Shown: positions 1,755-28,170 of the stretch, piece by piece
How positions within the stretch are numbered: position 1 is the first letter of the stretch
How the letters are laid out: every line of letters starts with the position of its first letter
Translations under genes and position numbers: made by a program
IMG/VR virus record: IMGVR_UViG_3300033067_002207
Coordinates: 1,865-65,864 of that record
From: a virus
Taxonomy: Duplodnaviria; Caudoviricetes
Strand: one strand, 5' to 3'
Length of the DNA: 64,000 bases
Notes under the pieces: model-generated
Told to the model about the DNA's origin: nothing
Databases searched by the model: none
Seen by the model: only the letters and a program-made list of their open reading frames with translations

Positions 1755-1884
1755 TTCCCATTGACGGGCGTGCGGCCGGTTGTTACCTTCCCCTCGTACG
1801 TCGTCGGTTTCGCCCGCCGGCGGCATCAAACAGCCTTGCCCGCCGCTTTGGTGCCGCCGGTGCGACGTTTCTGGAACATCGCTG

Positions 1885-3168
1885 ATGTTACCCCTGACGC
1901 CCGCATGGACGGACCTGCGATATCACCCCGAACAGGCCAGGCTCTGGCGAACCACGGTCCGCTTCGCCGCCGTTGACTGCGGTCGCGGGTCCGGAAAAAG
2001 CGAGATCGCCCGCCGCCGCGTCGTGCGGATGCTCAACATCAAGCGGCCCTGGTCCGACCCGGAATACTTCTACGCACTCCCGACTCAGGACCAGGCCCGC
2101 CTCAAGCACTGGGACAAGATCAAAGCCCTGATCCCCCGCCGCTGGATCAGGCACAAAGACGAAGTTCGCATGGTGATTACCACCATCTACGGCTCGAAGC
2201 TGTCCCTGATCGGCCTCGACAAACCGCACCGGGCCGAAGGTGCCCAGTACGACGGCGGCGTCATCGACGAGTCGAGCGACGTGCGGCCCAAGGTATTTGA
2301 CCTGACGTTCCGCCCGGCCCTGACCCACCGCAACGGCTGGTGCTGGCGGATCGGCGTCCCCAAACGCTACGGGGTCGGTGCCCGCGAGTTCCGCAGCGCT
2401 TGTGACGAGTGGGGAAACATGGGCCGCGAGTATGCTCACTTTCACTGGTCGTCGGCCGACATTCTGACGCCTGAGCAGATCGAATCTGAGCGGGCGGCAT
2501 TGGATGAACGCGACTTCTCTGAGCAGTACCTGGCGAACTGGGAGATGGCGTCCGGTCAGATTTACTACTCGTTCGACAAGGGGACCACGATCAAGCCGTG
2601 GATTTACCGGCCAGACCTGCCGATCTTCGTGGGCTCCGATTTCAACGTGAACCCGATGGGCTGGGTGCTGTTACAGGCTCACGGCCAGACGCTTCACGCC
2701 TTCGACGAGATCTGGCTGAAGAATACCAACACGCAGAAGACCCTCGACGAATTGCACCGGCGGTACGCGGGGCATAAGGGGGGCTGGCGGTTCTTCGGCG
2801 ATGCGTCAGGGCGGGGCCGGCGTTCGTCGGCGTCCAGCACGGATTACATGCAGATCGCGAACGACAAACGGTTCATCAATGCGACCGTGCATTACCCGGA
2901 AGCGAACCCGCCGATCGTCGATCGGTATGCGGCCGTGAACTGGGCGCTGAAGGCCGCGAACGGTCAGCAGACGCTCTTTGTGGACGGACGGTGCTTGCAT
3001 TTGCTCGAGGATTTGGAATACCTTTCCTACCGAGAAGGCACACGCGAGGCGGATACTCGCGACCCGGACGCCGGCCACATCAGCGACGGGCTGGGGTACG
3101 TCATCCACAAGCTGAAGCCGATGCGCGTCGAACGGGAGCAGCGGTCTTCAAGAGTCGCGGCGATGTGA
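1885..3168 (+). CDS. terL: Terminase large subunit
   Basis: Walker A DCGRGSGKS, Walker B GGVIDE, C-terminal RNase H-like nuclease motifs (GSDFNVNP, FFGDASG, HISDGLGY). Start placed at ATG 1885; the ORF track opens at 1780. Confidence 0.95.
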   Translation: MLPLTPAWTDLRYHPEQARLWRTTVRFAAVDCGRGSGKSEIARRRVVRMLNIKRPWSDPEYFYALPTQDQARLKHWDKIKALIPRRWIRHKDEVRMVITTIYGSKLSLIGLDKPHRAEGAQYDGGVIDESSDVRPKVFDLTFRPALTHRNGWCWRIGVPKRYGVGAREFRSACDEWGNMGREYAHFHWSSADILTPEQIESERAALDERDFSEQYLANWEMASGQIYYSFDKGTTIKPWIYRPDLPIFVGSDFNVNPMGWVLLQAHGQTLHAFDEIWLKNTNTQKTLDELHRRYAGHKGGWRFFGDASGRGRRSSASSTDYMQIANDKRFINATVHYPEANPPIVDRYAAVNWALKAANGQQTLFVDGRCLHLLEDLEYLSYREGTREADTRDPDAGHISDGLGYVIHKLKPMRVEREQRSSRVAAM

Positions 3169-3185: not shown

Positions 3186-6100
3186 ATGGCGACCCCTGAT
3201 CAGCGAGCATCCGATGCGGCGGCATGGCTGAAATCACCGGCAGGCCAGCGCGCTCAAAAGGAGCGGTCCCGGCAGGTCGCGGAACTGAAGGCCCTGATCG
3301 CCGAGGCCATGCAGATGGGCAATCGCGGCGAAGCCCGCGACCTGCAACAGCAGATGTCGAAGCTGATGCAAAAGAACCTGCGGGAGTTTGGGGCGTCGGT
3401 CACGGACACCCCGAAGGCGTGCGACACCCGCACCATCCCGGCCGGCGCGATCAGGCCCCAGGCCCGGCCATCGTACAACTCCCGCGACACCAACAGCGCC
3501 TTCACCGCGGCCGTTCAGATGTCGGCGTTCCACAAAAGGCCGATCTATATCCTCGTGACCAACCGCGGCTGGGTTATGAAGTGGGAGAAGCCCAGCATCG
3601 CGTACCGTCAGCCGGCGTTCAAACTCACGGCGACGCTGGACGGAGATCATTACACGATCGTCAAAGACGACCTGACGCCAGGCGGCTCAGGCCCGGCGAG
3701 CGGTCAGGGGGCGTCGGTCGCCGCGGCAAACGGCGGCGGGCATGTTTCCATTCGCACCGAGATTGCTGGTCATCCTGTAAAACGCACGGCGAAACAGGAT
3801 GCGGTGATCAAGCAGATTCTTAACAAGCATGGGGCGTTTTACAAAAGCACGTCTGATAAAGATGTTCTTTTTTTTGCACGGAACCCGGATGCGTTGTATC
3901 GAGATTTGAAACGAGTGGATCGTGACGTAGAGCGTTATGACGACGACGACCTGGATGCCTCAGTCGCCGCCGGCACCGCCGGCACCGCCGCACCGACGAT
4001 CGCCGCCGACGCCGTCAACCAATCCAAGTTGACCATCCAACAGGCCATGCCGCAGTTGGAGAAGCTGGGATATCAACTGAAGCGAGGCGTGTCGTCCCCT
4101 ACCGGCCCGACCAAGTATGTCTTTCTCAAGGACGGTCAGGAAGTAACGCTCGACAGCAACCAGATCAAAACCATGCTGCAAGGAAAAGGAGCATCGCAAA
4201 TGGATGGCGTCGCCGGATTGGAAGTTCCCACGCAGTTGTCCCGTCGCGCAAAATACATGCGGGCGATGCTGGCCGGCAAGCTCGGCACGCCGGGTGATCA
4301 GCCGTCCGCGGTCGCGGCGGCGGCGAATCCGGGGAACTCAGGCAGCACCCGCAAGCACATGGATCATGCGGAATACCAACGCCGGTTAAAAAGTAAGACG
4401 CCGGACGAACTGCGGTACATCATCAAAGATGCAACAGAAGCGGCGCGGGCAAACCCGCAAGGCGAGAACGCCGGCTATTATCAGGACGAGGCGTTGTACG
4501 CTCAAATGGAACTGAAAAAGCGGGGCGTCGGTGCCGCCCACATGCCGAACAACGGCTCCGTGCCGGATCGCATCTGGACCAACCGCCCGCACACCGGGAC
4601 CGCACCGCAGAAGGCGAAGGCGGCGGCGATCACCAGCAAAAACCAGGAACACGGGTTTTACAACGAGGCCCGTATAAATGGGATGGCTGACAAACTGTTG
4701 GCGTCCACCTTTAACCGGGTCGCGTCGACCCTGGTGTCACAGTTCAAACTGACACCGCAGCAGGCCCGCGACTTCCTGGATTCGCGAGACGGCCGGCACC
4801 TGGCCGACGCGATGATTACCGATGGCAACCTCGGCCCCATGCCGGCTTGGCTCGGCAGTCAGGTCAAGAGGTTTCTCAAGCAGTACGGCCCGTCGCTGTC
4901 TGCGTCGCAGGCGAAGGCGGCGGCGGCGGCGGCAACCGGCTCCGAGAACCCGCAGATGATTTCGTTCCTAAAGGCCCAGGGCTTCAAGCCCAACGGTCCC
5001 TATTGGGAATGGGAGTACCGACCTCAACCGAGATACGTCGCGACACGAATCAGCGTGATGCTTAAAAATGATTCGAGCGACGATCGCTGGTGGATCGTGT
5101 TTCCTGGTGCGACGATGACCTGGTCTGGCCACGGCCTGGATGAGTTGACAAAGAAGGTGCTGTTTCTGAAGAAGCAGTTGGTCGATGAGGACAAGCGGAG
5201 GCATCCGCAGTTGCATCCGGGCGGGGCGTCCGTCGCGGCGTCATTCAAGGTCGGCGACAAGGTGTCTTACCCTTCGCCAAATCCCGGAGACCCGCCGATG
5301 CGCGGTGTGATCAAGCGAATCGCTGACGGCCGGGCAACGCTGGTCGATTCATTGAACCCCGGAGATCACAAGACCGTCCCAGTTTCGATGCTGAAGCCGT
5401 ACCAGCCTGGCGGCAAGGAACTGCCGTTCGCGGCGGCTGGCACCAGCGTCATGGTTTCCCGCGCGCAGCATGACGCGATGATCGACGGCGACTCGGCCTG
5501 GATGAAGGCCGCCTGGCCGAAACTGAAAAGGACCTGGGGCATCGGCGGGGCGATCGTGACCGGCACCCCGCAGCAGCTTGCCGAACTGAAGGCGAAGATG
5601 CAGGCGAACCCGGTCGCGGCGAAGCCGCAGAAACCGTTCAAATTCTCAATGGATGATAAGCAGGGGCTGTTGTCCATCGTGCAGAAATACCCGAACGGGA
5701 TTTCGAACTTCCAGTTAGCCACGCTGGCAACAGGCAAAGAAGCGACAACCGGCGTTGTCAACAGCATTATGAATAAGATGCTGGAACACGTGCGGTCCGG
5801 TGCGGTACGGAAGGTCGGTGGGATGCACGGCGGGATCATTTACAAGCCCAACGGCGGTCCGAACCCGGCCGCGTCAATCGCGGCGTCCGCTCTCGACAAA
5901 GACACGATGGACGCGGTCCGTGAGTTGCAGACCGTTTGGCGAACGATCAACAAGGCGATCGCCAGCCTGCAAAACCTGAGCATCAGCACGGGCGAGGCGT
6001 CGGACGCCGTTCACAAGACAATGGCTCAAATCGAGCGCATGGCCAAGGACGTCGACTTCGCTCAGAAGCAAGTCATGCGAAGCGGCGGTAAGGGGGCGTC

Positions 6101-6299
6101 TGCGATCGCTGCCGGCATTAACCCTGGAACCCCAGAATGGACCAACGCCGTTCGATCTACGAGAGGGAAACTGCAAGATGCGGCTGTCGCTGTATCTCAG
6201 CTTGTATCCCAAGTCGACGACCAGGCGGTTAAACAGCAAGTCATAAAAGCGGATGGTCTGCTTGGATCGGTTCGTCAAATTCTGTTCAACATCCAATGA
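3186..6299 (+). CDS. Modular multi-domain protein (~1037 aa) with repeated GAS[VI]AA-type linkers; putative head-packaged polyprotein
   Basis: ATG 3186 after a purine-rich SD-like run. About 10-13 Ala-rich linkers separate 30-100 aa modules, including an SH3/KOW-like (FKVGDKV...), a winged-helix-like and several helical-bundle modules. Confidence 0.8.
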   Translation: MATPDQRASDAAAWLKSPAGQRAQKERSRQVAELKALIAEAMQMGNRGEARDLQQQMSKLMQKNLREFGASVTDTPKACDTRTIPAGAIRPQARPSYNSRDTNSAFTAAVQMSAFHKRPIYILVTNRGWVMKWEKPSIAYRQPAFKLTATLDGDHYTIVKDDLTPGGSGPASGQGASVAAANGGGHVSIRTEIAGHPVKRTAKQDAVIKQILNKHGAFYKSTSDKDVLFFARNPDALYRDLKRVDRDVERYDDDDLDASVAAGTAGTAAPTIAADAVNQSKLTIQQAMPQLEKLGYQLKRGVSSPTGPTKYVFLKDGQEVTLDSNQIKTMLQGKGASQMDGVAGLEVPTQLSRRAKYMRAMLAGKLGTPGDQPSAVAAAANPGNSGSTRKHMDHAEYQRRLKSKTPDELRYIIKDATEAARANPQGENAGYYQDEALYAQMELKKRGVGAAHMPNNGSVPDRIWTNRPHTGTAPQKAKAAAITSKNQEHGFYNEARINGMADKLLASTFNRVASTLVSQFKLTPQQARDFLDSRDGRHLADAMITDGNLGPMPAWLGSQVKRFLKQYGPSLSASQAKAAAAAATGSENPQMISFLKAQGFKPNGPYWEWEYRPQPRYVATRISVMLKNDSSDDRWWIVFPGATMTWSGHGLDELTKKVLFLKKQLVDEDKRRHPQLHPGGASVAASFKVGDKVSYPSPNPGDPPMRGVIKRIADGRATLVDSLNPGDHKTVPVSMLKPYQPGGKELPFAAAGTSVMVSRAQHDAMIDGDSAWMKAAWPKLKRTWGIGGAIVTGTPQQLAELKAKMQANPVAAKPQKPFKFSMDDKQGLLSIVQKYPNGISNFQLATLATGKEATTGVVNSIMNKMLEHVRSGAVRKVGGMHGGIIYKPNGGPNPAASIAASALDKDTMDAVRELQTVWRTINKAIASLQNLSISTGEASDAVHKTMAQIERMAKDVDFAQKQVMRSGGKGASAIAAGINPGTPEWTNAVRSTRGKLQDAAVAVSQLVSQVDDQAVKQQVIKADGLLGSVRQILFNIQ

Positions 6300-6634
6300 A
6301 AAAATCACCGCTCATCGTCGACGCCGAACGACGCCTGATCGCTCAGGCCGGCATGCCGTTCCCCATCGTAGAGCAGCCCCCGTTCAACGTGGGCCGCATC
6401 TACGAGAACGGTACGCCGTTCTCAAAGCGGGTGCCGCTCTCGCTCCTGATCGCCACGCAGCGTGACCTGGACGCCGGCAACGTGCAGGCCATGATGGCGG
6501 ATAGCGACAGCCTGGCCCCCATCCAAACCGTATGCCATCATGGCCGGCATTTCATCAATGACGGGCACCACCGGGCGGTCGCCGCCAGGTATCGGGGAGA
6601 AACGACGATCCCCGCACAAGTGGTCGAAGTCTGA
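6296..6634 (+). CDS. ParB/sulfiredoxin-like domain protein
   Basis: LIATQ...FINDGHHRAVAARYRG motif of ParB/Srx N-terminal domains; ATGA-coupled to the polyprotein. Confidence 0.75.
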   Translation: MKKSPLIVDAERRLIAQAGMPFPIVEQPPFNVGRIYENGTPFSKRVPLSLLIATQRDLDAGNVQAMMADSDSLAPIQTVCHHGRHFINDGHHRAVAARYRGETTIPAQVVEV

Positions 6635-6646
6635 AGGAGCAGGTAA

Positions 6647-8158
6647 ATGCCGCGGTTGGAAAAGACGCAAGACCAGGTTCTCAGCACGACCGGCATCGAC
6701 GGCGTGCTGGCGAAGGTGCAGCCGATCGATTGGAATAAGCGCGTCCGCAAGATGCGACGCGACCCGACGATCTCCTACCTCAGAAAACTCCTGATGGCCC
6801 CGATCCTCACATCGGACTGGACCGTCACCAGCGACGAGGGATACAAGCAGGCCGAGCAGAGCATTCACTCGGCGTTCGTACCGCGGCGGTTCGATATCAT
6901 CCGCAACGTAATCCGCGGCGAGCTAGACTTCGGCTGGCAACCGTTCGAGATGGTTTGGGATTACGATCAGGAACTCAACCAGGTTGTGCTGCGGAAGATG
7001 AAGCCGCTGCTGCAGGACATCACGGAGATACTCGTCAATCCGCACGGGGACCTGGTCGGCGTCCGCAACCGGCCGACGTACCTGTCGTCGCTGGGGTACA
7101 CCGGCCCCTGGGTCGATCTGTTCGGAAGCGAGTGCCTGGTCTTCAGTCACGACGTCGAAGGCACGAACTGGTACGGCGAGGCCGCGATGCGTGCCCAGGA
7201 AGGCCCGTACGAATCCTGGAACGAATGCGAAGCCGCGGCGAAGCGGTACGACACCAAGATCGCCGGCGCTCAGTGGGTGATCCGCTACCCGGAAGGGACC
7301 AGCACCTATAACGGGCAGGAAGACGTTGATAACTTCGTGGTCGCTCAGGACATCATGCGGAAGCTGGAGTCGTCCGGCAAAATCGCAATCCCGCAGCGGG
7401 TGCTGGATCAGGTGGAAGACCTGAACCAGGGCGTGACGGACGCGACGCGGGCCTGGGATATCGAACTGATCACCGCCAGCAGTTCGTCAGAGAGTCAGTT
7501 CGTCGGCCGGCAAAAATACCTCGACGCCCTGAAGGCGCGGGCGATCGGAATTCCTGAGCGGGCGGTGTTCGAAGGCCAGTTCGGCACCAAGGCCGAGGCC
7601 GAGGCCCACGCGGACTTCGCGATCGACAACATTCAGATGTGGCAGACGGACATCATCAATCATCTGAACAATACCGCCGTCAAATTCCTGCTGGAGATGA
7701 ATTTCGGCAAGGCTTACGAAGACCACGTGCGGCTCACCGCCTCGCCTCTCAGTGACGAGCGGAGGGCGTTCCTGCGGACGCTGTATATGGCCTACTTCCA
7801 ATCGCAGACCGGTTCCGCCGAGGAAGGCGAATCCGTCGATTGGGATGCCATCCGCGAAGAGCAAACGATCCCCACGCGGAAGGATCAGCATTCGATGGAG
7901 AAGGCGGAAAGCAAGGGCAAGGTGGATCAGCCGGGTGCCGAGGGGAATCCGGACGAGCCAGCCGCCGCGGCCTTGGGCGAGTACATGGAGGTTGGTCAGC
8001 GGGTCTGGATGAACAACCTGAAGCGTATCCGCAGTATCCTGGACGAAGTTCAGCACGGGACGATGAGCCGGCCGCTGGCTGAGCAGACGCTGCACATGAT
8101 CGGATTGCCGCCGAACCGGGTGTCCGCGATGCTGGACGCGATCGAGCCGGACGCTTAG
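6647..8158 (+). CDS. Portal protein (Mu gp29/DUF935-like)
   Basis: SD AAGGAG, 503 aa, position after terL; motifs LDFGWQPFEMVW and WYGEAAMR; C-terminal extension after an Ala-rich linker. Confidence 0.85.
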   Translation: MPRLEKTQDQVLSTTGIDGVLAKVQPIDWNKRVRKMRRDPTISYLRKLLMAPILTSDWTVTSDEGYKQAEQSIHSAFVPRRFDIIRNVIRGELDFGWQPFEMVWDYDQELNQVVLRKMKPLLQDITEILVNPHGDLVGVRNRPTYLSSLGYTGPWVDLFGSECLVFSHDVEGTNWYGEAAMRAQEGPYESWNECEAAAKRYDTKIAGAQWVIRYPEGTSTYNGQEDVDNFVVAQDIMRKLESSGKIAIPQRVLDQVEDLNQGVTDATRAWDIELITASSSSESQFVGRQKYLDALKARAIGIPERAVFEGQFGTKAEAEAHADFAIDNIQMWQTDIINHLNNTAVKFLLEMNFGKAYEDHVRLTASPLSDERRAFLRTLYMAYFQSQTGSAEEGESVDWDAIREEQTIPTRKDQHSMEKAESKGKVDQPGAEGNPDEPAAAALGEYMEVGQRVWMNNLKRIRSILDEVQHGTMSRPLAEQTLHMIGLPPNRVSAMLDAIEPDA

Positions 8159-8649
8159 AGCGTCGTAAAGCACTCTTCCGGGACCAGGATGTTGATCAGT
8201 TCGACGCGGTCGCCGAACGCCGTGGCGTTCTCTTCGATAATCTTCAGGATCACCGGCTCGCGGGTGACCGGGTTGGTCCGCACGACCGCGGCGGGAACCT
8301 GACGGAATGACCGCGTCCCCCGGCCGTCTTCGCGTTCGATCACGATGACGTTTGTCGGCTGATCATCAACCACTCGCATCGTCCCGCCGCTTGGCTCGCT
8401 GACCGCCTCAGGCTCGCGGACAGGCTCCGGTGTCGGTTCCTGGTGATGACGCCGCCAGTTCCAGATCGCCGCGGTGTATACGCACGTCAGGGCCACGGCG
8501 AGGGGCAGCAGGCCGTACATCCCCGGCCGGGTGAAGATCAGGTAAAGCCACAGGGACTGATTGGCCAGCCCGATCAACCAGCCCTGCCACATGCGGCGGG
8601 CGAGGCACGCCATCGAGAGGAACGTCGTCAGGGAAAGAATCCAGTCCAT
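8155..8649 (-). CDS. Three-TM membrane protein (PnuC-like N-terminus) with a soluble C-terminal domain
   Basis: MDWILSL...WQGWLIGLANQSLWLY...YGLLPL...WNW resembles the short PnuC-like proteins of phages. Confidence 0.55.
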   Translation of the reverse strand: MDWILSLTTFLSMACLARRMWQGWLIGLANQSLWLYLIFTRPGMYGLLPLAVALTCVYTAAIWNWRRHHQEPTPEPVREPEAVSEPSGGTMRVVDDQPTNVIVIEREDGRGTRSFRQVPAAVVRTNPVTREPVILKIIEENATAFGDRVELINILVPEECFTTL

Positions 8650-8894
8650 CAGCTTCGCTTTCGTGTCGGCGGGGAAACCATGTTGACCAGGTTCATAATC
8701 CTGGTCTCGCGGGCGATCGCGGAGATCTCCTCAGGCGTCGGGTCCGTGGTCTGACGGCAGCAGTTGTGACAGAGGCCGGATTCGGAGTCATCAGAACACG
8801 GGCGGTTGCAATCGATATTCGCACAGCGGCGCTGGGGCTGCTTGGTGATCTGCAACAGGCGGTGCATGCGGCGGTCGGATTTGTGTCGCGGCAT
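8649..8894 (-). CDS. Small Cys-rich (zinc-finger-like) protein
   Basis: CANIDC...LCHNCC; overlaps the next start; has its own promoter. Confidence 0.6.
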   Translation of the reverse strand: MPRHKSDRRMHRLLQITKQPQRRCANIDCNRPCSDDSESGLCHNCCRQTTDPTPEEISAIARETRIMNLVNMVSPPTRKRS

Positions 8895-8902
8895 GGCGAG
8901 CT

Positions 8903-8931
8903 AGAATAGCAGCCCGCCCCGGAAAGCACAA
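8903..8931 (-). promoter_or_regulatory. Sigma70-like promoter, near-leaderless
   Basis: TTGTGC-N17-TATTCT, 8 nt upstream of the ATG at 8894; no SD. Confidence 0.5.
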
Positions 8932-9015
8932 ACACCGCGACAGGCTCAGCAAACCCTGCCGCGGCGTAACAAAACGGACTGGCCGAAAACAATCCGGCCG
9001 ATCCTCGCCTGAAAA

Positions 9016-9723
9016 TCACTTGAGACCGAAGGTTCCCTTGTCGGCCTTTGCGAACCGGGCCTCGGCCCCCTTATTCGCGATCTCGCGTCCCAGGGCGGCG
9101 TACAGCGTCGCAGCCGGCGTCTTGCCGCCCGGCGACTTCCAGAGGCCGCGGGATTCCATCTCGCTGACCATCTCCTGGCAGTTCAGCGGGCGACCGACCG
9201 CCTTCAGCACCTGGGCCGCGGCGTCAAGCTGACTCAGCTTCTTAGTCGCGGCGGGGTCAGCCGCCGGTTTTGCGGCCTTCGGTGCGGCCGGATCTTTGAC
9301 CGCGGCGACCTTACCGGACTTCGGGGTCTTCGCGGCCTTCGGCGGCTTGGTGGCTTTCGCCGCGGCCTTCGCCGGCTTCTCAGCCTTCACCTTCGCGGGC
9401 TTCGCGGCCTTGGTCTTCGGGGTCTTCTTGGTAGCAGATTTTTTCGCCATCGTCAGGTCTCCTTCAGTTGAGGTTGGTGGTTCGTCGTCCGGCAGGGCCA
9501 TCACCGGCGTGCGTGCGGCCCAGGACGTTCGCTTGTTCTTCTGAGCGATAAAGGTTCGCTTTTCTCCGTCGTCGCCTTCGATCTCGACCACCGTCGCCGG
9601 CTTGTCGAGGTCGATGACTGCTCGGCTGTCCGAAACTGTGACGAGTCTGCCGGTGATCTGCAAGTCTGGCTGCAAAAATCTTGTGCCCGGTTTTAGCTGA
9701 GCGAGCGGCTGTAGCAGCGGCAT
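9016..9723 (-). CDS. Lys/Ala-rich histone-like protein with a C-terminal winged helix (HARE-HTH-like); probable internal start at 9450
   Basis: KKLSQLDAAAQVL...WKSPGGKTPAATLYAAL.REI...RF.K...G.F motif; AKPAK-rich linker; AAGGAG SD 7 nt before the internal ATG of MAKKSATKK. Confidence 0.8.
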   Translation of the reverse strand: MPLLQPLAQLKPGTRFLQPDLQITGRLVTVSDSRAVIDLDKPATVVEIEGDDGEKRTFIAQKNKRTSWAARTPVMALPDDEPPTSTEGDLTMAKKSATKKTPKTKAAKPAKVKAEKPAKAAAKATKPPKAAKTPKSGKVAAVKDPAAPKAAKPAADPAATKKLSQLDAAAQVLKAVGRPLNCQEMVSEMESRGLWKSPGGKTPAATLYAALGREIANKGAEARFAKADKGTFGLK

Positions 9724-9749
9724 GGGTTCTCCTCGTTAGGGTCAGGGGG

Positions 9750-10034
9750 TCAGTGGCTCAGTTCGTACGCGGCCTGCTTGCGGGCCAACTCGGCGAAGTT
9801 CATGTTCCGCAGGCAGTTCTCCAGGTCATTGATGGCCCAGTTCAGGAAGTCCCGCGGATTGCCGATCCCGCCCGTCGCGGGGTCGTATGCGGCGATGTCG
9901 GCGATCCGCTTGTCGATCTGAGCCGCGCATCGCCTGAGCGTTTCGGCCCGGTCGTTCAACGCCTCGATCACGGCCTTGTGCGAAAACTCGGCGTCGAGGC
10001 GTTTCATGCGAGCGGTGATTTCTTCGTCGGTCAT
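9750..10034 (-). CDS. Hypothetical helical protein (94 aa)
   Basis: ATG at 10034 preceded by a GAAAGG SD and a copy of the repeated promoter/leader. Confidence 0.7.
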   Translation of the reverse strand: MTDEEITARMKRLDAEFSHKAVIEALNDRAETLRRCAAQIDKRIADIAAYDPATGGIGNPRDFLNWAINDLENCLRNMNFAELARKQAAYELSH

Positions 10035-10070
10035 GGGTTCCCTTTCGGTTGGTGGTGATTCGTCCTCTGC

Positions 10071-10103
10071 AGTGATAACGCGGTGGGCCGCGGGTCGGAT
10101 CAC
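10071..10103 (-). promoter_or_regulatory. ECF-type promoter, copy 1
   Basis: GTGATC-N17-CGTTATCACT, with an inverted repeat CGCGG..CCGCG abutting the -10. Confidence 0.65.
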
Positions 10104-10555
10104 TGAATATCCTGCAATTCCATTTTTTCCAGCCGGCGTTCGGTCCACCGCAGGGCCGTGGCCAGCGGCCGGGGTTCCAGCCCCCAGTCCTGATACCCCC
10201 GCTTGATGCAGTCCAGGTACGATTCGCTGGGCAGCATCAGGGTACGGCGTGGCGTCATCACGTAGAACATCGCCTCGCGGCCGTCCGCGGTCAGGATCGT
10301 GCGCTTGACGTAATAACTGGGGAACCCCTCGTAGCGGTCCAAGGCCCGCTCGCACTCGGCGGTGATCTCGTACACCGCCCCGATCACGCGGCCCCTGGGG
10401 TCAGGGATCACGTCAGCGTGGGTCTTGAACACCAGCCGGAACCCCGGCAGGTCGGCCCGGCACAGGGGCTTGGCCCGCGGGCAGCGTATCTGCATTTGAT
10501 CCAGGTTCAGGTTGCTGCCGTAGGCGAAATACAGGGCGTGGTGCTTGGCGGTCAT
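10100..10555 (-). CDS. Gamma-glutamylcyclotransferase (AIG2-like) family protein
   Basis: YFAYGSNL...RC...LDRYEG.P..Y motifs. Confidence 0.92.
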   Translation of the reverse strand: MTAKHHALYFAYGSNLNLDQMQIRCPRAKPLCRADLPGFRLVFKTHADVIPDPRGRVIGAVYEITAECERALDRYEGFPSYYVKRTILTADGREAMFYVMTPRRTLMLPSESYLDCIKRGYQDWGLEPRPLATALRWTERRLEKMELQDIQ

Positions 10556-10593
10556 CGTGCGGTCCTTTCGGTTGGTGGTGATTGCTGGCCTGT

Positions 10594-10626
10594 AGTGATA
10601 ACGCAGCGGATCGCTGCGAGGTTCAC
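10594..10626 (-). promoter_or_regulatory. ECF-type promoter, copy 2
   Basis: GTGAAC-N17-CGTTATCACT with hairpin CGCAGCG-ATC-CGCTGCG. Its 20-bp leader (10564-10583) is identical to 10041-10060. Confidence 0.7.
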
Positions 10627-10633
10627 GGTTTTC

Positions 10634-10665
10634 AAAAAACCCCGGCGGCGAACCCCGCCGCCGGG
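10634..10665 (-). terminator. Intrinsic terminator after the amidoligase gene
   Basis: GC hairpin CCCGGCGGCG/CGCCGCCGGG followed by a T-run on the minus strand. Confidence 0.8.
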
Positions 10666-10677
10666 CGTCGCCGCGGC

Positions 10678-11523
10678 TTACCGGGCCGCGTCGTATTTCT
10701 GAGCGAGGCGGCGGAACTCCTTCTTGATCGCTTTGTCGTCAGCCGGGGCGAAGCCGGTCATCCCGTATTTGCGACCGCTCTTGACGTGCCCCTTGGTCCA
10801 GCCGAGGCGGTAGAACAACCGGTTGACTTCCGCTTCGCCGTGACCGGCCGTCCCGCGTTCCCAGGGTCCGGGCTTGCCGGGCTTGGCGTTGTAGTCCCAG
10901 CCGACCGACCGCTTGCTGTCCAGGGCCAACTCGACCAAGCCCAACACCATCAGCAGGTGACCGATCACTTTGGTCTTGTTGAGCGTGCCGGCGAAGGCGC
11001 GGAATTCAATCCGGTTTTTGCCTGAGGCGAGGTGCGTCAGGTTGAGCAGGTGATATCGGTTGCTGTCCAGGTGCCACTTCGCGTTGTTGGCGTTGCCGTA
11101 CTGCTTGACCGGCCGCGAAAAACGGCCTTGCTCGCGGCTGTGCGTTCCGGTCGAGGCGTAGATCGCTTTTTCATGGTTCGCGACCAGGGTGATCAGCCGG
11201 GCCAAGGCGACCGCGTCGCCGTTCCAGGTGACCGTGATGTGCAGCCCGCAACTCGGGTTCACCCGTGCGCCGCGGGCGTTCATCTTGTCGATCGCGTCCG
11301 TGACCTGAGCGATCCCCTCGTCACCGCTTAGCTTCGGGCTGACGAACTCACAGCCTTTGCGATCCGGCGTCCCGGTCTGGATGCTGCCGTCCCGTTCCGC
11401 CCGCCAGCCGGCCGGAAGCCAGGGCACCTGCCAGCCGTTGTGATAGGGGCCGATCGGGGTGTCATCGCTGCCCGGCAGGGTGGTTTCGAATTCGATCCCG
11501 AAGGTGATGTCGGCGGCGTTCAT
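10678..11523 (-). CDS. Putative amidoligase (Amidoligase_2, COOH-NH2 ligase)
   Basis: TFGIEFET, RDGSI, CEFVSPKL, NPSCGLHI, RYHLLN and RIEFRAFAGTLN motifs. Confidence 0.9.
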   Translation of the reverse strand: MNAADITFGIEFETTLPGSDDTPIGPYHNGWQVPWLPAGWRAERDGSIQTGTPDRKGCEFVSPKLSGDEGIAQVTDAIDKMNARGARVNPSCGLHITVTWNGDAVALARLITLVANHEKAIYASTGTHSREQGRFSRPVKQYGNANNAKWHLDSNRYHLLNLTHLASGKNRIEFRAFAGTLNKTKVIGHLLMVLGLVELALDSKRSVGWDYNAKPGKPGPWERGTAGHGEAEVNRLFYRLGWTKGHVKSGRKYGMTGFAPADDKAIKKEFRRLAQKYDAAR

Positions 11524-11564
11524 CGTAGGCTCCTGATTTGGTTTCGCGTTTCACTGCTGACATC

Positions 11565-11595
11565 AGGATAACGCAGTTCACTGCGAACGGTTCAC
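11565..11595 (-). promoter_or_regulatory. ECF-type promoter, copy 3
   Basis: GTGAAC-N16-CGTTATCCT with inverted repeat CGCAG..CTGCG. Confidence 0.65.
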
Positions 11596-11681
11596 GAATC
11601 CGCTGCGAATTTTTCTTTTTCTCACGCCGACGCAGTAAGCTGCGAACGTGTTTGCAGTTACGGCGAGGGAATTTTGCTGCG

Positions 11682-11710
11682 TTGACGAATTAGTCGCGGG
11701 CCGTTAGGAT
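11682..11710 (+). promoter_or_regulatory. Sigma70 promoter with GAC-N6-GTC operator
   Basis: TTGACG-N17-TAGGAT; contains TTGAC-GAATTA-GTCGC. Confidence 0.8.
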
Positions 11711-11737
11711 CACCGCCTCACCTGAAAGGGGGCGAAC

Positions 11738-13236: not shown

Positions 13237-13337
13237 CCATTGCGAAAAGTCATGTCGCCGATTGACATACGGACACGCCTGCTCGCATAATCGCCGCGAA
13301 GTCTGCGATTTATGTTTCACCCCAGGAGCGTCCAATC

Positions 13338-13637: not shown

Positions 13638-13683
13638 TTCTGATCTCCGTACGTCCCGTTTAACTCAACATCAAGGAGATGCC

Positions 13684-16991: not shown

Positions 16992-17072
16992 CCGCTGGAG
17001 CGGTCGCACCGACCCCGCCGTTGCATGATGCAATCGCCCGCAAGGGCCGGCGGGGTCTTGAGGAGAGGAAAC

Positions 17073-17402: not shown

Positions 17403-17408
17403 TTCGCC

Positions 17409-20830: not shown

Positions 20831-21633
20831 CGCTCGGACGCCGCAACCCCATCTATATCGGCAACGACAATGTGTTCCGCACACGCGGGATCAAGAATTC
20901 GTTGACGAATGAGTTCATCAACGACGCCACCGTCGAACTGACGCTGAACGACCTGGACGGGAACGAGATCAGCGGACAAACCTGGCCGCTGACGCTGACC
21001 TACATCGCCGGCACGAACGGCGAATACCAGGGAACGATCGACGACGCGATCGACGTCGAAGACGGCCAGACCGGCGAGGCGGTGCTGGAGATCTCCGGGG
21101 ACAGCCTCACGGCGACCCTGACGCTGGCGGTGGTGTTCAGCGAACGGTCGGACCCGTCGCTGGCGTGGACATCCCGCAGCGAGATCGAACTGATGTTCGG
21201 CCGCGAAAGCGTGTCGCAGTGGGCTGACCTGGACAGCACGCAGGACGCGGACCTGATCAGCGAACGCATCCAGTGGGCCGTGGATCACGCCACGGACGAC
21301 GCCCGCACACGGCTGACCGGGAGCCCCGTCAACCTGTCGAAGCTGACCGACGCCCCGCTGAAGCTGCGTCTGGAGACGACCCGGCTGGCCGGCGTCATCC
21401 TGTACGAATCGCGGGGCGTGGTAGACACGTCCGACGAGGAAGGCCGGCACCGGCTCAAATATCACCAGGACCGCGCGAACCAGTTCTTTCAGCGGGTGCG
21501 GGCCGGGCTGATCCGGTTGACCCCGCAAACGACCAACGCCCCTGGAGTGATCACCGACACCGACACTTCGACCACCTGCACCGACGATGATTATTTCCTG
21601 GTGGGCACCAAAGAATGTCCGTGGAACATCTGA
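20827..21633 (+). CDS. Fusion of an Ig/BppU-like beta domain to a Mu gp36 (DUF1320)-like head-tail adaptor
   Basis: All-beta N-half (IYIGNDN...ATVELTL...GEYQGTI); C-half WTSRSEIELMFG...IQWAVDHATDDARTRL. Confidence 0.7.
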   Translation: MTLGRRNPIYIGNDNVFRTRGIKNSLTNEFINDATVELTLNDLDGNEISGQTWPLTLTYIAGTNGEYQGTIDDAIDVEDGQTGEAVLEISGDSLTATLTLAVVFSERSDPSLAWTSRSEIELMFGRESVSQWADLDSTQDADLISERIQWAVDHATDDARTRLTGSPVNLSKLTDAPLKLRLETTRLAGVILYESRGVVDTSDEEGRHRLKYHQDRANQFFQRVRAGLIRLTPQTTNAPGVITDTDTSTTCTDDDYFLVGTKECPWNI

Positions 21634-22478
21634 TCGCCGCCCGGCCCGGCCCGCTTGATCTGAACCGCGAATTGCGGGCGATCGACCGGGCCGCGGACCG
21701 ACGCATCGCTCTGATCGGAAGGCGGCTCGAGCAAATGGCATCGAGCCAGATCCTGGCCGGCCGCGCACTGGACCTGTCGCCGATCGATCAAATGGTCGAC
21801 GACCTGGTCGTCGACGTGATGATCGCCTCGCACCTGAAAGCGATGGACCTGGTCCGTCCGACCTACGCCCTGGCCCGCAGCGAGATCGACAAGGCGCTAA
21901 GCCGGGCACCCAAGCACGTGCGCGATGCCCTGCGGGAGTTGTATGGATCGATCGCCCGATCGGTGTCGGACAAGCCGATGTCAAAAGTTCGTGAAGCGTT
22001 GATGCAAGACGCGCAGAACGTGGCCCTGGGTCGGTCCGCACGCCGGCAGTCAATTCGTGCGGCGCTGAAGTCAGCCGGCATCGCGATGGAAGACTCGCCG
22101 GTGTTGCGCACGGTGATGCGGACACAAGGGTCAATCGCTTTCAATGCCGCGGCGTGGAGCAGCAGCAAGAACCCGAACGTGTGGGGTTATCAATACATCA
22201 CCGCCGGCGACGAACGGGTGCGGCAGACGCACCGGGCGTTTGAGCCGCGGGGAATTGGAGTGCGGTATCCGGTTGACGACCCGTTCTGGCTCAGGTACGC
22301 CCCGCCAAACGGCTGGAACTGCCGTTGCGGCCTGAGGCCGATCTTCCGGGGCGACCGTGACGCCAGAAAACGCGAGTTTCCCGGCACGCCTGACGTGCCG
22401 GCGTCGTTCCAGTTCAATCCCGGCTTGATCTTTCAGGCACCGGAAAAAAGCAAAAAAAAGAAACGGAGCGCACGCTGA
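21615..22478 (+). CDS. Phage head morphogenesis protein (MuF/gp7 family)
   Basis: YQYITAGDERVRQTH...PPNGWNCRC motif. Confidence 0.92.
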   Translation: MSVEHLIAARPGPLDLNRELRAIDRAADRRIALIGRRLEQMASSQILAGRALDLSPIDQMVDDLVVDVMIASHLKAMDLVRPTYALARSEIDKALSRAPKHVRDALRELYGSIARSVSDKPMSKVREALMQDAQNVALGRSARRQSIRAALKSAGIAMEDSPVLRTVMRTQGSIAFNAAAWSSSKNPNVWGYQYITAGDERVRQTHRAFEPRGIGVRYPVDDPFWLRYAPPNGWNCRCGLRPIFRGDRDARKREFPGTPDVPASFQFNPGLIFQAPEKSKKKKRSAR

Positions 22479-22518: not shown

Positions 22519-23733
22519 ATGAACCTCGCGGTCAGCTATCTTCCGAAGAAACCTATCATCCTGTCCGGCAGCACGGCCTCGCCGTTCCAGTCGGTCGGGA
22601 ATGACCCTACGCTGTACCGGAAAGAGTTAATTTACCCATCGGACAAGTTCGCCAAGCGGAACCAGGACGACGGGTCGATCGACTTCACGCTGCCCGTGAC
22701 CGAGGCTACGTTGGATCACTGGGCCAGCCAGTTCGCCAAGATGAAGGCGGCGGGCGTGGAAGTGCCGCTGGTGGTCGAACACACCGAAGACCCGGAAGAG
22801 CGTCGCGGTACGGTGGTCGACATTCGCAAAGAATACAATCCGCAGCGCGGAATGCCGTCGCTGTTCATGTACGGCCGGTTTCGCGACCCCGAAGCCGCGG
22901 AACTAGCCAAGACGTCCCAGGTAAGCCTCTACGCCAAGCCGAAGTTTTACGACGGCGTCGGCAACGAGTACGAGTACCCGATCACGCACGTTGCGATGAC
23001 GGACTACCCGCTGATCCCGGCCCTGGGCGGATGGGAAATCGTGCCGGAAAAGGGGCAGTCGGCGGCGTCCAACAAAGTCATCGCCGCGTCCTTGGTGTTG
23101 TCAGATGCAGCCGAACCAACTCAGGACCAATCCATGAATCCAATGCAAGCACTCGCCCAGGAGATGGGCATCGCGTTCCCCCCGGGCGCGGATGACGAGA
23201 CGATCAAGTCGCTGATCATGCAGGCGTGGGACGCCGAAGCCCCGGCCGAAGAAGGGTTTGAAAGCCCCGAAGAGGAAGGTCTCGAAGACCCCATGATGAC
23301 GGACGAGATGGGTGGCGACGACATGCTGGGCGATGATGGCATGGGCGACGCGGACCCGTCGCTGGACGATCCGTCGCTGGAAGAAGACCCGCTGGTCGCC
23401 CCCGCTGGCGCATCCATCGCGGCTTCGCTGGGACCGGCGGTCAAGGCGACCGTCGATGCTCGCCGGATGCAGTTGGAAGCCCTGGTCGTCGCCCGCAAGA
23501 TCACGCCGGCCGAGCGGGACCATTACGTCAAGACCCTGGCCAATCCCGGCCGCGTCAAGTTCGCCCTGTCGTCGGGCGGCGTGGGCGACGGCTTTTCCGA
23601 TATCGTGGCCTCGCTGAACGCCCGCGGAGCCTCTTACCCGGCCGGGGAAAAGACCCCGGTCCAGCACGGCGACGGTGGCAGCGTGCCGGCGATCGTGCGG
23701 GACGCTGAGCGGCGTCGGAAGGCGAGCGGCTGA
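22519..23733 (+). CDS. Prohead protease/scaffold (Mu gpI-like)
   Basis: VPLVVEH, QVSLY and HVAMTDYP motifs; acidic linker; helical scaffold-like C-terminus; lies upstream of the decoration and capsid genes. Confidence 0.8.
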   Translation: MNLAVSYLPKKPIILSGSTASPFQSVGNDPTLYRKELIYPSDKFAKRNQDDGSIDFTLPVTEATLDHWASQFAKMKAAGVEVPLVVEHTEDPEERRGTVVDIRKEYNPQRGMPSLFMYGRFRDPEAAELAKTSQVSLYAKPKFYDGVGNEYEYPITHVAMTDYPLIPALGGWEIVPEKGQSAASNKVIAASLVLSDAAEPTQDQSMNPMQALAQEMGIAFPPGADDETIKSLIMQAWDAEAPAEEGFESPEEEGLEDPMMTDEMGGDDMLGDDGMGDADPSLDDPSLEEDPLVAPAGASIAASLGPAVKATVDARRMQLEALVVARKITPAERDHYVKTLANPGRVKFALSSGGVGDGFSDIVASLNARGASYPAGEKTPVQHGDGGSVPAIVRDAERRRKASG

Positions 23734-24338: not shown

Positions 24339-25400
24339 ATGTCTTTGGCCGACATTTTCAATGGCGACGCGTTCACGATGCACAATCTGACCGCGTCGAT
24401 CGACAAGCTGCCCTATGTGCCGGGCCGCGTCGAGGAACTGACGCTGTTCACCAACAAGCCGACCACGACCCGCACGGCGTACATCGAAGAACGCCAGGGG
24501 CAACTGGCGCTCCTGCCGGTGAAATCCCGCGGCGAGATGCCATCCAGCACCAGCGGCCAGAACCCCCGCAAGATGCGGCCGTTCGAGGTTCCGCACGTGC
24601 CGCAGCATCGGACCATCCTGGCCGAATCGCTGGAAGGCAAGCGGGCCTTCGGCAGTGAGACGGAGACCGAGGTCTACGCCACACTCGTCAACGACGAGTT
24701 GGCGGAAATGAAGGTCTGGCACGAAGTCACCCACGAATGGCACCGGCTCGGTGCCCTGAAGGGGATCGTGCTGGACGCCGACGCCTCGACCGTCGTCTAC
24801 AACTTTTTTACCGAATTCGGGCTGTCTCAAACGCAGCTTGATTTCAACAAATACGACGGCGGCACGTATGACGCCGCCGATCCGGCGATCCATTTTCGCA
24901 CGCTCTGCACGTCCTGGATTCGGTCGATCCGCGACGCTTTGGGTGCGACCCCGTTCAAGGGCGTCCACGCGTTGTGCGGGGACAACTATTTCGACGCCCT
25001 GATCGAACACGCCACGGTTCGCGGGGCGTACAAAAACTACACCGCGGCTCAGGAAGCCCTGGGCGGGCAGAAGGCTGGCGAAGGCCAGGTCTTCAGCTTC
25101 GGCGGCATCGACTTCGAAAACTACCGCGGCTCGATCGGAGACGTGGACTTCGTCGACACCGACGAAGCGGTGATCTTCCCCAAGGGGGCACCGAACGTCT
25201 TCCTCGAAATCCCGGCCCCGGCGACGTTTATCGAAACGATCAACACCCGCGGCCAGATGCTGTACGCCAAGCAGAAGGTGATGGACTGGGATTTGGGCGT
25301 CGAACTCTTCACGCAATCCAACGTGCTTTACATCTGCACGCGGCCCGGCTGCTTGATCAAGAGCCTGCTCACCAACACCGCCCCTGGCACCGGTTCGTAA
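24339..25400 (+). CDS. Major capsid protein (lambda gpE / Phage_cap_E-like)
   Basis: MSLADIFNGDAFT...LTASID.LPYVP; T.EWHRLGALKGIVLDAD; ELFTQSNVLYICTRP; ends in PGTGS. Confidence 0.93.
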   Translation: MSLADIFNGDAFTMHNLTASIDKLPYVPGRVEELTLFTNKPTTTRTAYIEERQGQLALLPVKSRGEMPSSTSGQNPRKMRPFEVPHVPQHRTILAESLEGKRAFGSETETEVYATLVNDELAEMKVWHEVTHEWHRLGALKGIVLDADASTVVYNFFTEFGLSQTQLDFNKYDGGTYDAADPAIHFRTLCTSWIRSIRDALGATPFKGVHALCGDNYFDALIEHATVRGAYKNYTAAQEALGGQKAGEGQVFSFGGIDFENYRGSIGDVDFVDTDEAVIFPKGAPNVFLEIPAPATFIETINTRGQMLYAKQKVMDWDLGVELFTQSNVLYICTRPGCLIKSLLTNTAPGTGS

Positions 25401-25891: not shown

Positions 25892-26415
25892 TCGACCCGT
25901 TCACCCAAGTCTACGACGCCCTGTGGAGTCTCGCCGAGACGCCGCGGGTAACGTCGTTGGTGCGGGTCGGCAATCGCATCAAGCTGGACAGCACCCCGCC
26001 CACGGCCGGCCTGAAGGATCAGATCAGCCAGGCTGACGTCCCGGAGATGGTGCTGGCCCTGACGGCAACCACGGGCAACTGGCTGGGGACGTCATCGTCA
26101 TCCAGTTTCGTGAGGCAATACCAATGGCAGATCTCGACGGGCGATCTGAAGCCGTCGAAGCTGCTGGCGCTCGAATGGGCGCTCAATTGTGCGATGGTCA
26201 ACTGGACCGAGGCGCTGGCGGCGCTGACCTGGTACGGCGAACCGTTTGTCAAACGGACGCAACTGGTCAGCGCTGAGCATGGAGAATCTGACCCGGAAAG
26301 AAACCGCGGGATTCGCGGCTGGTCGGCGTTGTGGACGGCGGAAGTGGAAATGCACTTTCGCACGAGGGATATGCTGGCGTATAACCTGGGAACTGGAACG
26401 GGGAGTGGAACATGA
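25888..26415 (+). CDS. Putative tail terminator
   Basis: Position between the gpG-like and tube genes; beta-rich C-half; ends in GTGTGSGT. Confidence 0.6.
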   Translation: MIDPFTQVYDALWSLAETPRVTSLVRVGNRIKLDSTPPTAGLKDQISQADVPEMVLALTATTGNWLGTSSSSSFVRQYQWQISTGDLKPSKLLALEWALNCAMVNWTEALAALTWYGEPFVKRTQLVSAEHGESDPERNRGIRGWSALWTAEVEMHFRTRDMLAYNLGTGTGSGT

Positions 26416-26951
26416 CCGCAATCAACCCGCTGATCAAAGACGCAATGCGACGGGCCGGGCAGCAGCCGCCGGCGAACGGGGAAGTTCGCATCGGGGACGG
26501 CACCACCGTGGTGCAATGCTCAGTGGGGGCCAGTTCCGCCCCGCTCTCGCCGGCCGACCGGCAACTTCGCATGAACGTGCGAAACTTCCTGATGACGGCC
26601 ACGCTCGACGAACTGAAGAAAGAACTGGCCATCTCCAAGCAGCGTGGTGACGCCAAGCGGGCGCAATTCATCCAGGAGATGATCGACGAAGAAGGGGTCG
26701 GGGCGTCGATGAAGCCCGGCAAGGCCGTGGGATGTGCGAACGGCGGCGTGACGGCCGGCACCAGTGGTGTGGCTCCTCAGGATGCCAACCGCATCCTGGC
26801 CGAACTGAAAAAGCTCGATGCCGCGATCAGGGCGATCCAGAAAATCCAAGACCCCGACCGGGCTCCCGCGACGAACGACTATCGCCAGGCGTTCTACAAA
26901 ATGACGGATGGATTTTGGGCCATGAAGGATGTGCTGGGCGCGGCGTTCTGA
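26412..26951 (+). CDS. Small modular protein with GAS linkers (relative of the polyprotein)
   Basis: VGASSA and GVGASM linkers; ELKKELAISKQRGD module aligns with polyprotein module 1. Confidence 0.7.
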   Translation: MTAINPLIKDAMRRAGQQPPANGEVRIGDGTTVVQCSVGASSAPLSPADRQLRMNVRNFLMTATLDELKKELAISKQRGDAKRAQFIQEMIDEEGVGASMKPGKAVGCANGGVTAGTSGVAPQDANRILAELKKLDAAIRAIQKIQDPDRAPATNDYRQAFYKMTDGFWAMKDVLGAAF

Positions 26952-27900: not shown

Positions 27901-28170
27901 ATGGAATCACGCAGGTCGCGTTACATGGCCAGCCTGGCGGCTCAGCGGTCGCCGGGCTGTTCAACTGCCGTTGCTGCCGGTATTCTGGCGCAGGAAAGCC
28001 CGGAGTTTTCCCAGCAGGTCGCTCAGCTTACCCAGGCCGTGCAACAGGCCGTCAGCCTGGCCCAACAGTTGCGGTCTAAGGCTGCGGGGCGTGGGACCGG
28101 CTCGGTGATCCGTGACCGGATCGAAGGCCCGCTGACGGACGCCTTGGGAGTTCTCCGGCGGTTCAATTAA
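27901..28170 (+). CDS. Small modular protein (relative of the polyprotein)
   Basis: SD GAGGA; MESRRSRYMASLA...STAVAAG followed by a helical hairpin. Confidence 0.7.
   Translation: MESRRSRYMASLAAQRSPGCSTAVAAGILAQESPEFSQQVAQLTQAVQQAVSLAQQLRSKAAGRGTGSVIRDRIEGPLTDALGVLRRFN

Follow-up and report, generated by a model that had tools for sequence, protein, structure and literature searches.

The window examined here is a 64,000-nt stretch of a tailed-phage genome (Caudoviricetes; IMG/VR virus record IMGVR_UViG_3300033067_002207, 65,864 bp, ~95% complete). Between its genes for the large terminase and the portal lies one open frame of 1037 codons (3186-6299, plus strand; P0001), whose product is built from small modules joined by short, recurrent linkers. 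The subject of this study is P0001, together with a separate protease-scaffold gene (P0003) that putatively encodes the enzyme acting on those linkers. P0001 starts 17 nt past the terminase stop codon, with a purine-rich ribosome-binding site upstream, and its 3′ end forms an ATGA overlap with the next gene (6296-6634). P0001, P0003, and the genes that give their context are as follows:

1780..3168, +, large terminase TerL
3186..6299, +, polyprotein gene P0001; 1037 aa, 112 kDa, pI 9.8, ~11 modules of 6.5-16 kDa
6296..6634, +, ParB/sulfiredoxin-like protein, 112 aa, DGHHR motif; translationally coupled to P0001
6647..8158, +, Mu-type portal
21615..22478, +, MuF-like minor head protein
22519..23733, +, putative prohead protease-scaffold fusion P0003; protease aa 20-165, acidic linker aa 241-296, helical scaffold-like domain aa 298-404
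24339..25400, +, lambda gpE-type major capsid protein, without N-terminal delta domain

Modular architecture of the polyprotein

A HMMER scan of P0001 against 1.84 billion cluster representatives (E<1e-3) returned 270 matches; among the 150 listed, nearly all are proteins of 54-160 aa that cover a single module. Segments with such stand-alone homologues comprise aa 7-74, 278-332, 387-450, 481-570, 742-823, 820-887, and 971-1037, and the segment at aa 387-450 (the DHAEY module) alone has more than 100 of them among the listed matches. The ends of the HMMER matches coincide with linker strings, so that module borders set independently of the linkers nevertheless fall upon them. P0001 is thus confirmed as beads on a string, comprising ~11 small unrelated modules, as an initial annotation made from the sequence alone had described it. 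That annotation had also named the DHAEY..TPDELRYII and FLDSRDGRH units as free small phage proteins, and both do occur in this form among the single-module matches.

The only profile match in P0001 is to phrog_8020 (function not assigned), covering aa 481-545 within the FLDSRDGRH module; Pfam, PHROG, and NCBIfam scans of P0001 and of two polyproteins from related phages (P0002 and P0004) were otherwise empty (Pfam E<0.1, noise aside). Regions previously labeled SH3/KOW-like and winged-helix-like matched no Pfam, PHROG, or NCBIfam model, and the AlphaFold model is too poor in these regions to be informative; both labels are unconfirmed. An ESM Atlas search with two of the modules returned nothing usable. 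No protease-like module was found inside P0001, the candidate protease gene being 16 kb away, and hhalign comparison of P0001 with the protease/scaffold family recovered no shared domains.

Single-sequence AlphaFold prediction of P0001 gave a predicted local distance difference test score (pLDDT) of 46 and a predicted template modeling score (pTM) of 0.28, and serves only to locate confidently predicted islands (aa 11-69, 281-333, 391-448, 905-965, and 980-1037), the edges of which meet linkers. Independent domains with low-confidence linkers had been anticipated; the separate islands bounded by linkers agree with this, and no integrated fold is apparent, though in a model of such quality the agreement is weak evidence. 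Foldseek searches of the P0001 model against PDB and BFVD returned only meaningless matches, with low template modeling scores, to long helical or disordered proteins, and no module is assigned a fold here.

Linker motifs and the protease-scaffold gene

All 12 linker strings picked out in the initial annotation are present where it had placed them. Eight sites conform to a core motif Φ-[SA]-A-[SAG], with the P1 residue at aa 180, 262, 378, 573, 685, 750, 900, and 976; two further sites (aa 70 and 450) conform to a looser Φ-G-A-[SA]. The ten predicted cuts (marked ↓ where a site is written out) would yield eleven pieces of 6.5-16 kDa, nearly all of them basic (pI mostly 8-10). The sites, with the evidence by which each was placed, are:

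3387..3398, +, weak linker site F68-G-A70↓S71, end of module 1 (HMMER ends at aa 7-74; AlphaFold)
3711..3728, +, linker ASVAAA, predicted cut after A180 (motif)
3957..3974, +, linker ASVAAG, predicted cut after A262 (motif)
4305..4322, +, linker SAVAAA, predicted cut after A378 (motif)
4527..4538, +, weak linker site V448-G-A450↓A451, end of the DHAEY module (HMMER ends; AlphaFold)
4893..4907, +, linker SLSAS, predicted cut after A573, end of the FLDSRDGRH module with phrog_8020 (motif; HMMER)
5226..5243, +, linker ASVAAS, predicted cut after A685 (motif)
5427..5438, +, linker FAAA, predicted cut after A750 (FAAS in the homologue P0002)
5871..5888, +, linker ASIAAS, predicted cut after A900 (identical hexapeptide in the protease/scaffold protein)
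6099..6116, +, linker SAIAAG, predicted cut after A976, ahead of the last module (motif; HMMER)

The recurrence of these sites is far in excess of what composition would produce. An extended form of the motif, [AS][ILVM][SA]A[SAG], is observed 7 times in P0001 as against 0.29 expected, and none of 20,000 composition-preserving shuffles reached 7. Elsewhere in the window the same motif occurs 6 times in ~18,400 ORF (open reading frame) residues, one of these being in the protease/scaffold gene; its density in P0001 is therefore ~20-fold that of the remaining ORFs. Because synonymous codons differ between linker copies and the DNA-level repeats at linkers are both short (12-20 nt) and imperfect (75-88% identical), selection appears to act on the linker peptide.

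These observations bear on a very improbable explanation, namely that the linkers are cut by some other enzyme (host signal-peptidase-like or periplasmic, recognizing A-x-A) or serve chiefly as joints at which cassettes recombine at the DNA level. The V-A-A and I-A-A strings do resemble A-x-A signal peptidase sites, modules clearly shuffle among phages, and the short repeats are found at some linkers. However, neither signal peptides nor hydrophobic segments lie ahead of the sites, the imperfect repeats and differing codons do not favor joints at the DNA level, and neither proposal accounts for the match to, and co-variation with, the junctions of the protease-scaffold protein described below.

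P0003 itself falls below thresholds for Pfam (including PF10123) and PHROG. Its homologues P0169 and P0167 (41-42% identity; E 1e-58 and 1e-61) pass the PF10123 (Mu-like_Pro) cut-off, P0169 matches phrog_328 ("head maturation protease"), and some members of the family are fused to MuF. Neither P0003 nor its family profile retrieved any PDB sequence. The AlphaFold model of P0003, built from an 18-sequence alignment, comprises a β-rich domain modeled with confidence (aa 20-165), then a disordered segment (165-204), two helices, an acidic disordered segment (241-298), and a helical C-terminal domain. The best structural match for aa 19-166 is T4 gp21 (5jbl_B; Z 8.8, root-mean-square deviation 3.1 Å, 119 aa), followed by the proteases of varicella-zoster virus, pseudorabies virus, herpes simplex virus, and human cytomegalovirus (HCMV; Z 8.0-5); the Foldseek top list likewise consists mostly of herpesvirus assemblins, with weak E values of ~1e-2. 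Residues H88, S136, and H157 are invariant in the 18 aligned sequences, in an order that fits a His-Ser-His triad. Because its homologues match PF10123 and phrog_328, and because of the predicted domain layout and the fold shared with gp21 and herpesvirus proteases, P0003 is modeled as a Mu gpI-type, assemblin-fold prohead serine protease. The C-terminal region is read as scaffold-like from its position and predicted helices, without homology.

Two sites resembling the P0001 linkers occur at the domain junctions of P0003:

23077..23091, +, junction site 1, V-I-A-A↓S191, in the disordered segment directly after the protease domain (I188-A-A↓S191)
23410..23427, +, junction site 2, ASIAA↓S303, separating the acidic linker from the scaffold-like helices (I300-A-A↓S303)

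Junction 1 follows a family pattern x-I-A-A-S, in which A190 and S191 are invariant among the 18 relatives, and junction 2 reads Φ-[SA]-A-S in most of them. Both motifs stand out amid variable inter-domain regions and lie in, or border, low-pLDDT segments; the ASIAAS hexapeptide of junction 2 also appears verbatim in P0001. At each site P3 is aliphatic, P1 is Ala, and P1′ is Ser, as in the herpesvirus assemblin rule Φ-x-A↓S, for which the cleavage consensus is (V/L/I)-x-A↓S. A substrate of the HCMV protease contains ..Asn-Ala-Ser-Ser.. (PMC13486704). The linkers of P0001 thus appear to be copies of the presumed self-processing sites of P0003, and cleavage at those linkers by P0003 is supported indirectly.

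An unlikely, though not negligible, alternative is that P0001 is an uncleaved multidomain protein of the "polyvalent" kind, in which the Ala/Ser motifs are hinges and the 112-kDa chain stays whole when it acts or is delivered. Phages are known to encode polyvalent proteins of 2-15 domains near virion genes, and the N4 virion RNA polymerase is packaged unprocessed (PMC5512222); the linkers of P0001, moreover, fall in low-confidence and probably flexible segments of the AlphaFold model. Generic hinges, however, need neither a fixed Φ-x-A-S/A/G register nor a match to both junctions of a protease encoded elsewhere.

Relatives, mosaicism, and co-variation

Searches of 50,697 cultured phage records with P0001, the portal, and the protease (tblastn) gave no matches, nor did the first 20 kb of the window (megablast against cultured phage records); the portal was likewise absent from the GTDB genomes scanned. 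Because none of the three proteins has a match among the cultured phage records, the clade is known from metagenomes only. Relatives were identified through a single sequence homologue of P0001 and subsequently through homologues of the portal. Seven other uncultured phage contigs, with portals 55-58% identical to that of the window, share the arrangement of terminase, a variable slot, a ParB-like gene in some cases, and portal, with the following proteins in the slot:

L001 (68.6 kb): polyprotein P0002, 1263 aa
G001/L005 (66.2 kb, complete): polyproteins of 401 and 346 aa
L011 (67.0 kb): polyprotein P0004, 515 aa
L012: polyprotein of 454 aa
L013 (64.6 kb): polyproteins of 529 and 240 aa
L014 (64.9 kb): polyproteins of 877 and 146 aa
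L009: polyproteins of ~530 and 201 aa

In all-against-all BLAST comparison, any two of these polyproteins share just one or two modules, at different positions. Six phages show a 4-5-fold excess of the core motif in their main polyprotein ORFs (in each case the observed count is reached by no more than 46 of 5000 shuffles); the short 240-aa ORF of L013 and the ORFs of L009 and L014 show no excess. The expectation that linkers would be kept while modules vary among homologues therefore holds across the seven relatives, whose modules are mosaic and whose linkers are similar. The arrays of G001 (L005 7043-9279) and L013 (5337-7653) are each split into two overlapping ORFs in different frames, which may be separate genes or be joined by a programmed frameshift. 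A further 609-aa polyprotein, P0049 (JGI 3300075153, a 2-kb contig), belongs to another lineage; it contains two FLDSRDGRH modules and carries the linker ..AAGRKE[ND]RDQ.. three times, and may represent a second linker dialect on the same principle.

The L014 polyprotein, in which the core motif is no more frequent than expected (2 vs 1.7), instead contains 8 copies of S-Φ-[KR]-[ALG]-[SAG] (0.24 expected; none of 5000 shuffles reaches 8). Three copies of this variant occur in the L009 polyprotein and none in eight other polyprotein ORFs. The protease encoded on the L014 contig (P0162) is the sole one of the 18 sequences with AVKGS at junction 1 instead of AIAAS. A parallel is seen in G001 and L013, in which Ser occupies P2 in almost all linkers (ISAA, VSAA, MSAA) and at junction 2 (P-V-S-A-S); in the window phage, P2 is Ala in linkers and protease junctions alike. 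Of the arguments for a single enzyme acting on both the linkers and the protease junctions, this co-variation is the strongest; because it comes from one clear lineage, it is strong but not conclusive. It also tells against uncleaved hinges, since linkers change to K/R at P2 only in the lineage with K in its protease junction. Cleavage by the prohead protease, as the initial annotation had proposed, accordingly gains strong indirect support from the fold of P0003, its matching junction motifs, the linkers of the relatives, and their co-variation with the junctions, which together stop short of demonstrating it.

Two more distant members of the same portal family, L010 (858-3082) and L015 (1-2132), have the terminase directly followed by the portal, with no polyprotein; because these phages lack it, the polyprotein gene is accessory. 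In the L015 phage, the protease (P0170) shows divergent junctions (AAAAS, and a different second site). These distributions bear on the proposal, which we judge improbable, that the prohead protease does cleave P0001, yet the protein merely helps assembly (as auxiliary scaffold, core, or filler) and its fragments are lost from the capsid before DNA packaging instead of being injected. T4, HK97, and herpesviruses dispose of scaffold and core proteins by such a route (PMC4498786), and the gene is located in the head module. Yet the content of the arrays is hypervariable and mosaic while portals remain 55-58% identical, and of the two relatives that lack the gene both keep the portal and one also the protease type. 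Modules also recur as free proteins, with a near-identical module present in a differently placed gene of another phage, and the pieces are apparently folded domains of 6-16 kDa, probably large for escape through capsid pores.

The exchange of modules is most evident in two small genes outside the array. P0297, a cargo-like gene lying among head-tail and tail genes, contains a module that matches aa 855-910 of the L001 polyprotein at 88% identity, against ~55% identity for core genes; on this sequence comparison, it looks like a recent cassette transfer between the window phage and L001. P0054, the positional homologue of P0297, keeps the leader of that protein and combines it with the last module of P0001. 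As the contents of P0297 and P0054 show, modules move between the array and leader-bearing small genes. Other stand-alone module homologues are mostly on contigs of 1-2 kb, the neighborhoods of which told little beyond the position of P0054.

The remainder of the head cluster follows the order MuF, protease-scaffold, a 146-aa ORF, and gpE-type capsid protein, which is identical in L016; the window also carries a tape-measure gene, and the phage combines siphovirus-type tail genes with a Mu-type head module. This module is split by ~13 kb of other genes (8155-21600), partly on the minus strand, between the portal and the MuF, protease, and capsid genes. Insertions at this gap differ among relatives, including amidoligase, GGACT, and HARE-HTH genes in L001 and radical SAM and methyltransferase genes in L012. 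In the window, the gap includes a 467-aa protein (18845-20248) with an internally duplicated ..IAGY[VI]DTEVAAILAAVDTEVAAIKVKTD.. block, encoded next after a beta-helix protein (17409-18845); its appearance is that of a fibre or spike module located between the portal and MuF genes. The string ..GASIAAD.. in this ORF was taken as a chance occurrence, given the repeat-rich, fibre-like character of the protein and the Asp at P1′. A second candidate site, ..AAVAALGEY.. in the portal (7900-8000, before the C-terminal extension), is conserved in four relatives but is unconvincing; its P1′ residue is Leu, and G001 and L013 lack the string.

Leader-like peptides, known systems, and proposed function

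Two kinds of short peptide recur in P0001, in the scaffold, and in small genes of the window, and are candidates for targeting proteins to the capsid:

4239..4277, +, basic element SRRAKYMR.. (aa 352-364 of P0001), candidate capsid-targeting peptide
23686..23730, +, C-terminal tail of the scaffold, ..IVRDAERR..; predicted terminal helix with D395 and A396 nearly invariant and R399 invariant
26412..26951, +, P0297, cargo-like gene among head-tail/tail genes; DAxRR-type leader, then VGAS/SAP, then a module
27901..28170, +, P0298, 89 aa; SRRSRYM basic element at the start, followed directly by ASLAA↓Q

The basic pattern S-[RK]-[RK]-x-[RK]-[YF]-[ML]-[RK] is present in the polyproteins of the window, L001, L009, L011, L012, and L014; elsewhere in six-frame translations of the window and those loci, it occurs only at the start of the gene at 27901-28170. 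In L009, the strict element is close to the N-terminus of the upstream ORF, and a looser version heads the downstream ORF of the split arrays in G001 and L013, where it is followed by a site. P0298 occupies the usual position of a tail-assembly chaperone; cargo and chaperone are both possible identities for it.

The second peptide is the last helix of the scaffold (..Φ-Φ-x-D-A-E-R-R..), which is kept across the P0003 family in the 18-sequence alignment. The N-terminus of the product of the 6296-6634 gene (..PLIVDAERR..) resembles this tail, with D-A-E-x-R invariant in five orthologues, and the C-terminus of P0049 contains two copies of NPLLADAERR. Orthologues of this ParB-like gene occupy the same position in L001, L011, L013, and G001; the product matches phrog_26754 (E 0.005), and the sole PDB match of its family profile is a weak one to sulfiredoxin (E 0.075). 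By analogy, the SRRAKYMR and DAERR peptides may direct encapsidation; comparable roles are played by the capsid-targeting sequence of T4 and, in HK97, by the tail at the C-terminus of the protease. The split arrays, and the existence of single-module genes with a leader and a site, also imply that the modules need not be linked, which is difficult to reconcile with a chain that functions intact.

The internal proteins (IPs) of T4, whose capsid-targeting sequence is cut by the prohead protease gp21, offer a functional parallel, and T4 IPI is an injected anti-restriction factor. Like the modules of P0001, IPI, IPII, IPIII, and Alt include small basic proteins encoded with head genes, and the fold of gp21 is common to P0003. 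The T4 arrangement of leader and protease site has candidate counterparts in the small genes P0297 and P0298, in L009, and in the split arrays of G001 and L013; in T4, however, each cargo has its own gene and N-terminal leader, with a site [L/I]-x-E, whereas here ~11-15 cargos are strung on one chain with a site Φ-x-A↓S/A/G. No homology of P0001 to T4 IPs or Alt was detected by Pfam, PHROG, or NCBIfam; the likeness is therefore functional, and not one of family membership. Phage Mu shares other elements, as members of the P0003 family match the gpI/gpZ family (PF10123) and the head gene order of portal, MuF, protease-scaffold, and capsid is the same; Mu is not known to have a gene between terminase and portal.

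Among larger phages, work on the substrates of SPN3US gp245 and phiKZ gp175 describes many head-internal proteins that the prohead protease trims at a short motif and that are then ejected (PMC5694885, PMC7411985, PMC10052503). In these phiKZ-like jumbo phages, separate large proteins shed propeptides at a motif ending in Glu, in 240-kb myoviruses; here a polyprotein encoded in a 66-kb phage would be divided into many modules. The Dar proteins of P1 (DarA, DarB, Hdf, DdrB) are described as head-packaged, processed anti-restriction proteins including a ParB-like DdrB (PMC5512222; PMC9024508, PMC12810830). They differ from P0001 in being separate large proteins with ordered incorporation, and no homology between them and the window phage was detected.

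Polyvalent proteins carry many unrelated domains per chain near virion genes, with proteolytic release after delivery proposed (Iyer et al. 2017, PMC5512222). P0001 shares with them 2-15 unrelated domains, mosaic architectures, and a portal/MuF neighborhood, and differs in lacking the embedded zincin-like (MPTase) peptidase by which they are proposed to process themselves, as well as the recognizable enzymatic and signature effector or LPD domains, having no peptidase and no Pfam domain; the DdrB-type ParB domains of that survey (PMC5512222) have their counterpart here in a separate small neighboring gene. RNA-virus polyproteins, too, embed their protease, while that for P0001 is encoded separately. 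In herpesviruses, the protease-scaffold fusion pUL26, with its R- and M-sites, cleaves itself after the protease (the R-site) and within the scaffold, and the scaffold C-terminus binds capsid protein (PMC4498786); the two P0003 junctions lie where such fusions free themselves. The herpesvirus enzyme is known to cut the protease and scaffold alone, without any array of cargo, and the likeness of its sites to those of P0003 may be convergent or ancestral. What appears distinctive relative to these systems is the stringing of many cargos on sites for a maturation protease that acts in trans. A description of a phage polyprotein of this type was not found in the literature searched, coverage of which was incomplete.

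Taken together, we consider it reasonably probable that P0001 is a cargo polyprotein, in which ~11 small, mostly basic modules joined by maturation-protease sites are cut in the procapsid and the pieces injected. The polyprotein would be synthesized late, with terminase and portal, as its position and translational coupling suggest, and would enter the assembling procapsid, possibly by way of the basic SRRAKYMR element. Active protease would then cut it at 8-10 linkers, and the resulting basic pieces of 6-16 kDa would stay with the DNA and, by analogy, exit through the tail at infection. Packaging and injection are suggested by analogy with T4 and phiKZ, by the small and basic character of the pieces, and by the candidate targeting peptides. 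The initial annotation's suggestion that the modules form an anti-defence or takeover cocktail of early effectors is speculative, as no module gave a match that points to a function. We favor an accessory, conflict-type role over one in assembly because the content is mosaic and rapidly exchanged, the gene is missing in some relatives, and the modules are common as free proteins. A broader and more tentative possibility is that of an exchangeable cargo array across a clade of uncultured phages with ~65 kb genomes, in which site-flanked proteins are spliced in or leader-borne, then loaded into the procapsid, freed by the maturation protease, and injected, and protease and linkers co-evolve within each lineage.

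Several points weigh against a cleaved and injected cargo. Cleavage, packaging, and ejection are all things we infer, with no cultured relative found, and Ala/Ser-rich flexible linkers are also found in uncleaved proteins. The P0003 sites invariably have Ser at P1′, as against 3 of the 8 core sites in P0001, the rest having Ala or Gly; two of the 12 listed linkers (KGASQ and KAKAAA) fall outside the motif. P0001 has no N-terminal leader, its basic element being internal and its targeting role putative, and many stand-alone homologues of its modules have no recognizable leader either. The poor P0001 model (pLDDT 46) supports the lack of an integrated fold weakly, and the co-variation draws on L014 and on L009, whose own protease is not in the comparison.

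If the cargo polyprotein interpretation is correct, phages would make true multi-site polyproteins on which the capsid protease acts in trans, and sets of cargo would be swapped as cassettes between phages. The cleavage motif would then be readable from the protease-scaffold gene, making virion cargo predictable from sequence, and the leader peptides and sites described here would be concrete candidates for loading foreign proteins into capsids. If the broader reading of an exchangeable array also holds, general and programmable multi-protein delivery would extend to phages with ordinary-sized genomes and siphovirus-type tail genes, which would hold a large reservoir of early effectors. Dozens of small uncharacterized protein families would be candidates for the first proteins met by the host cell.

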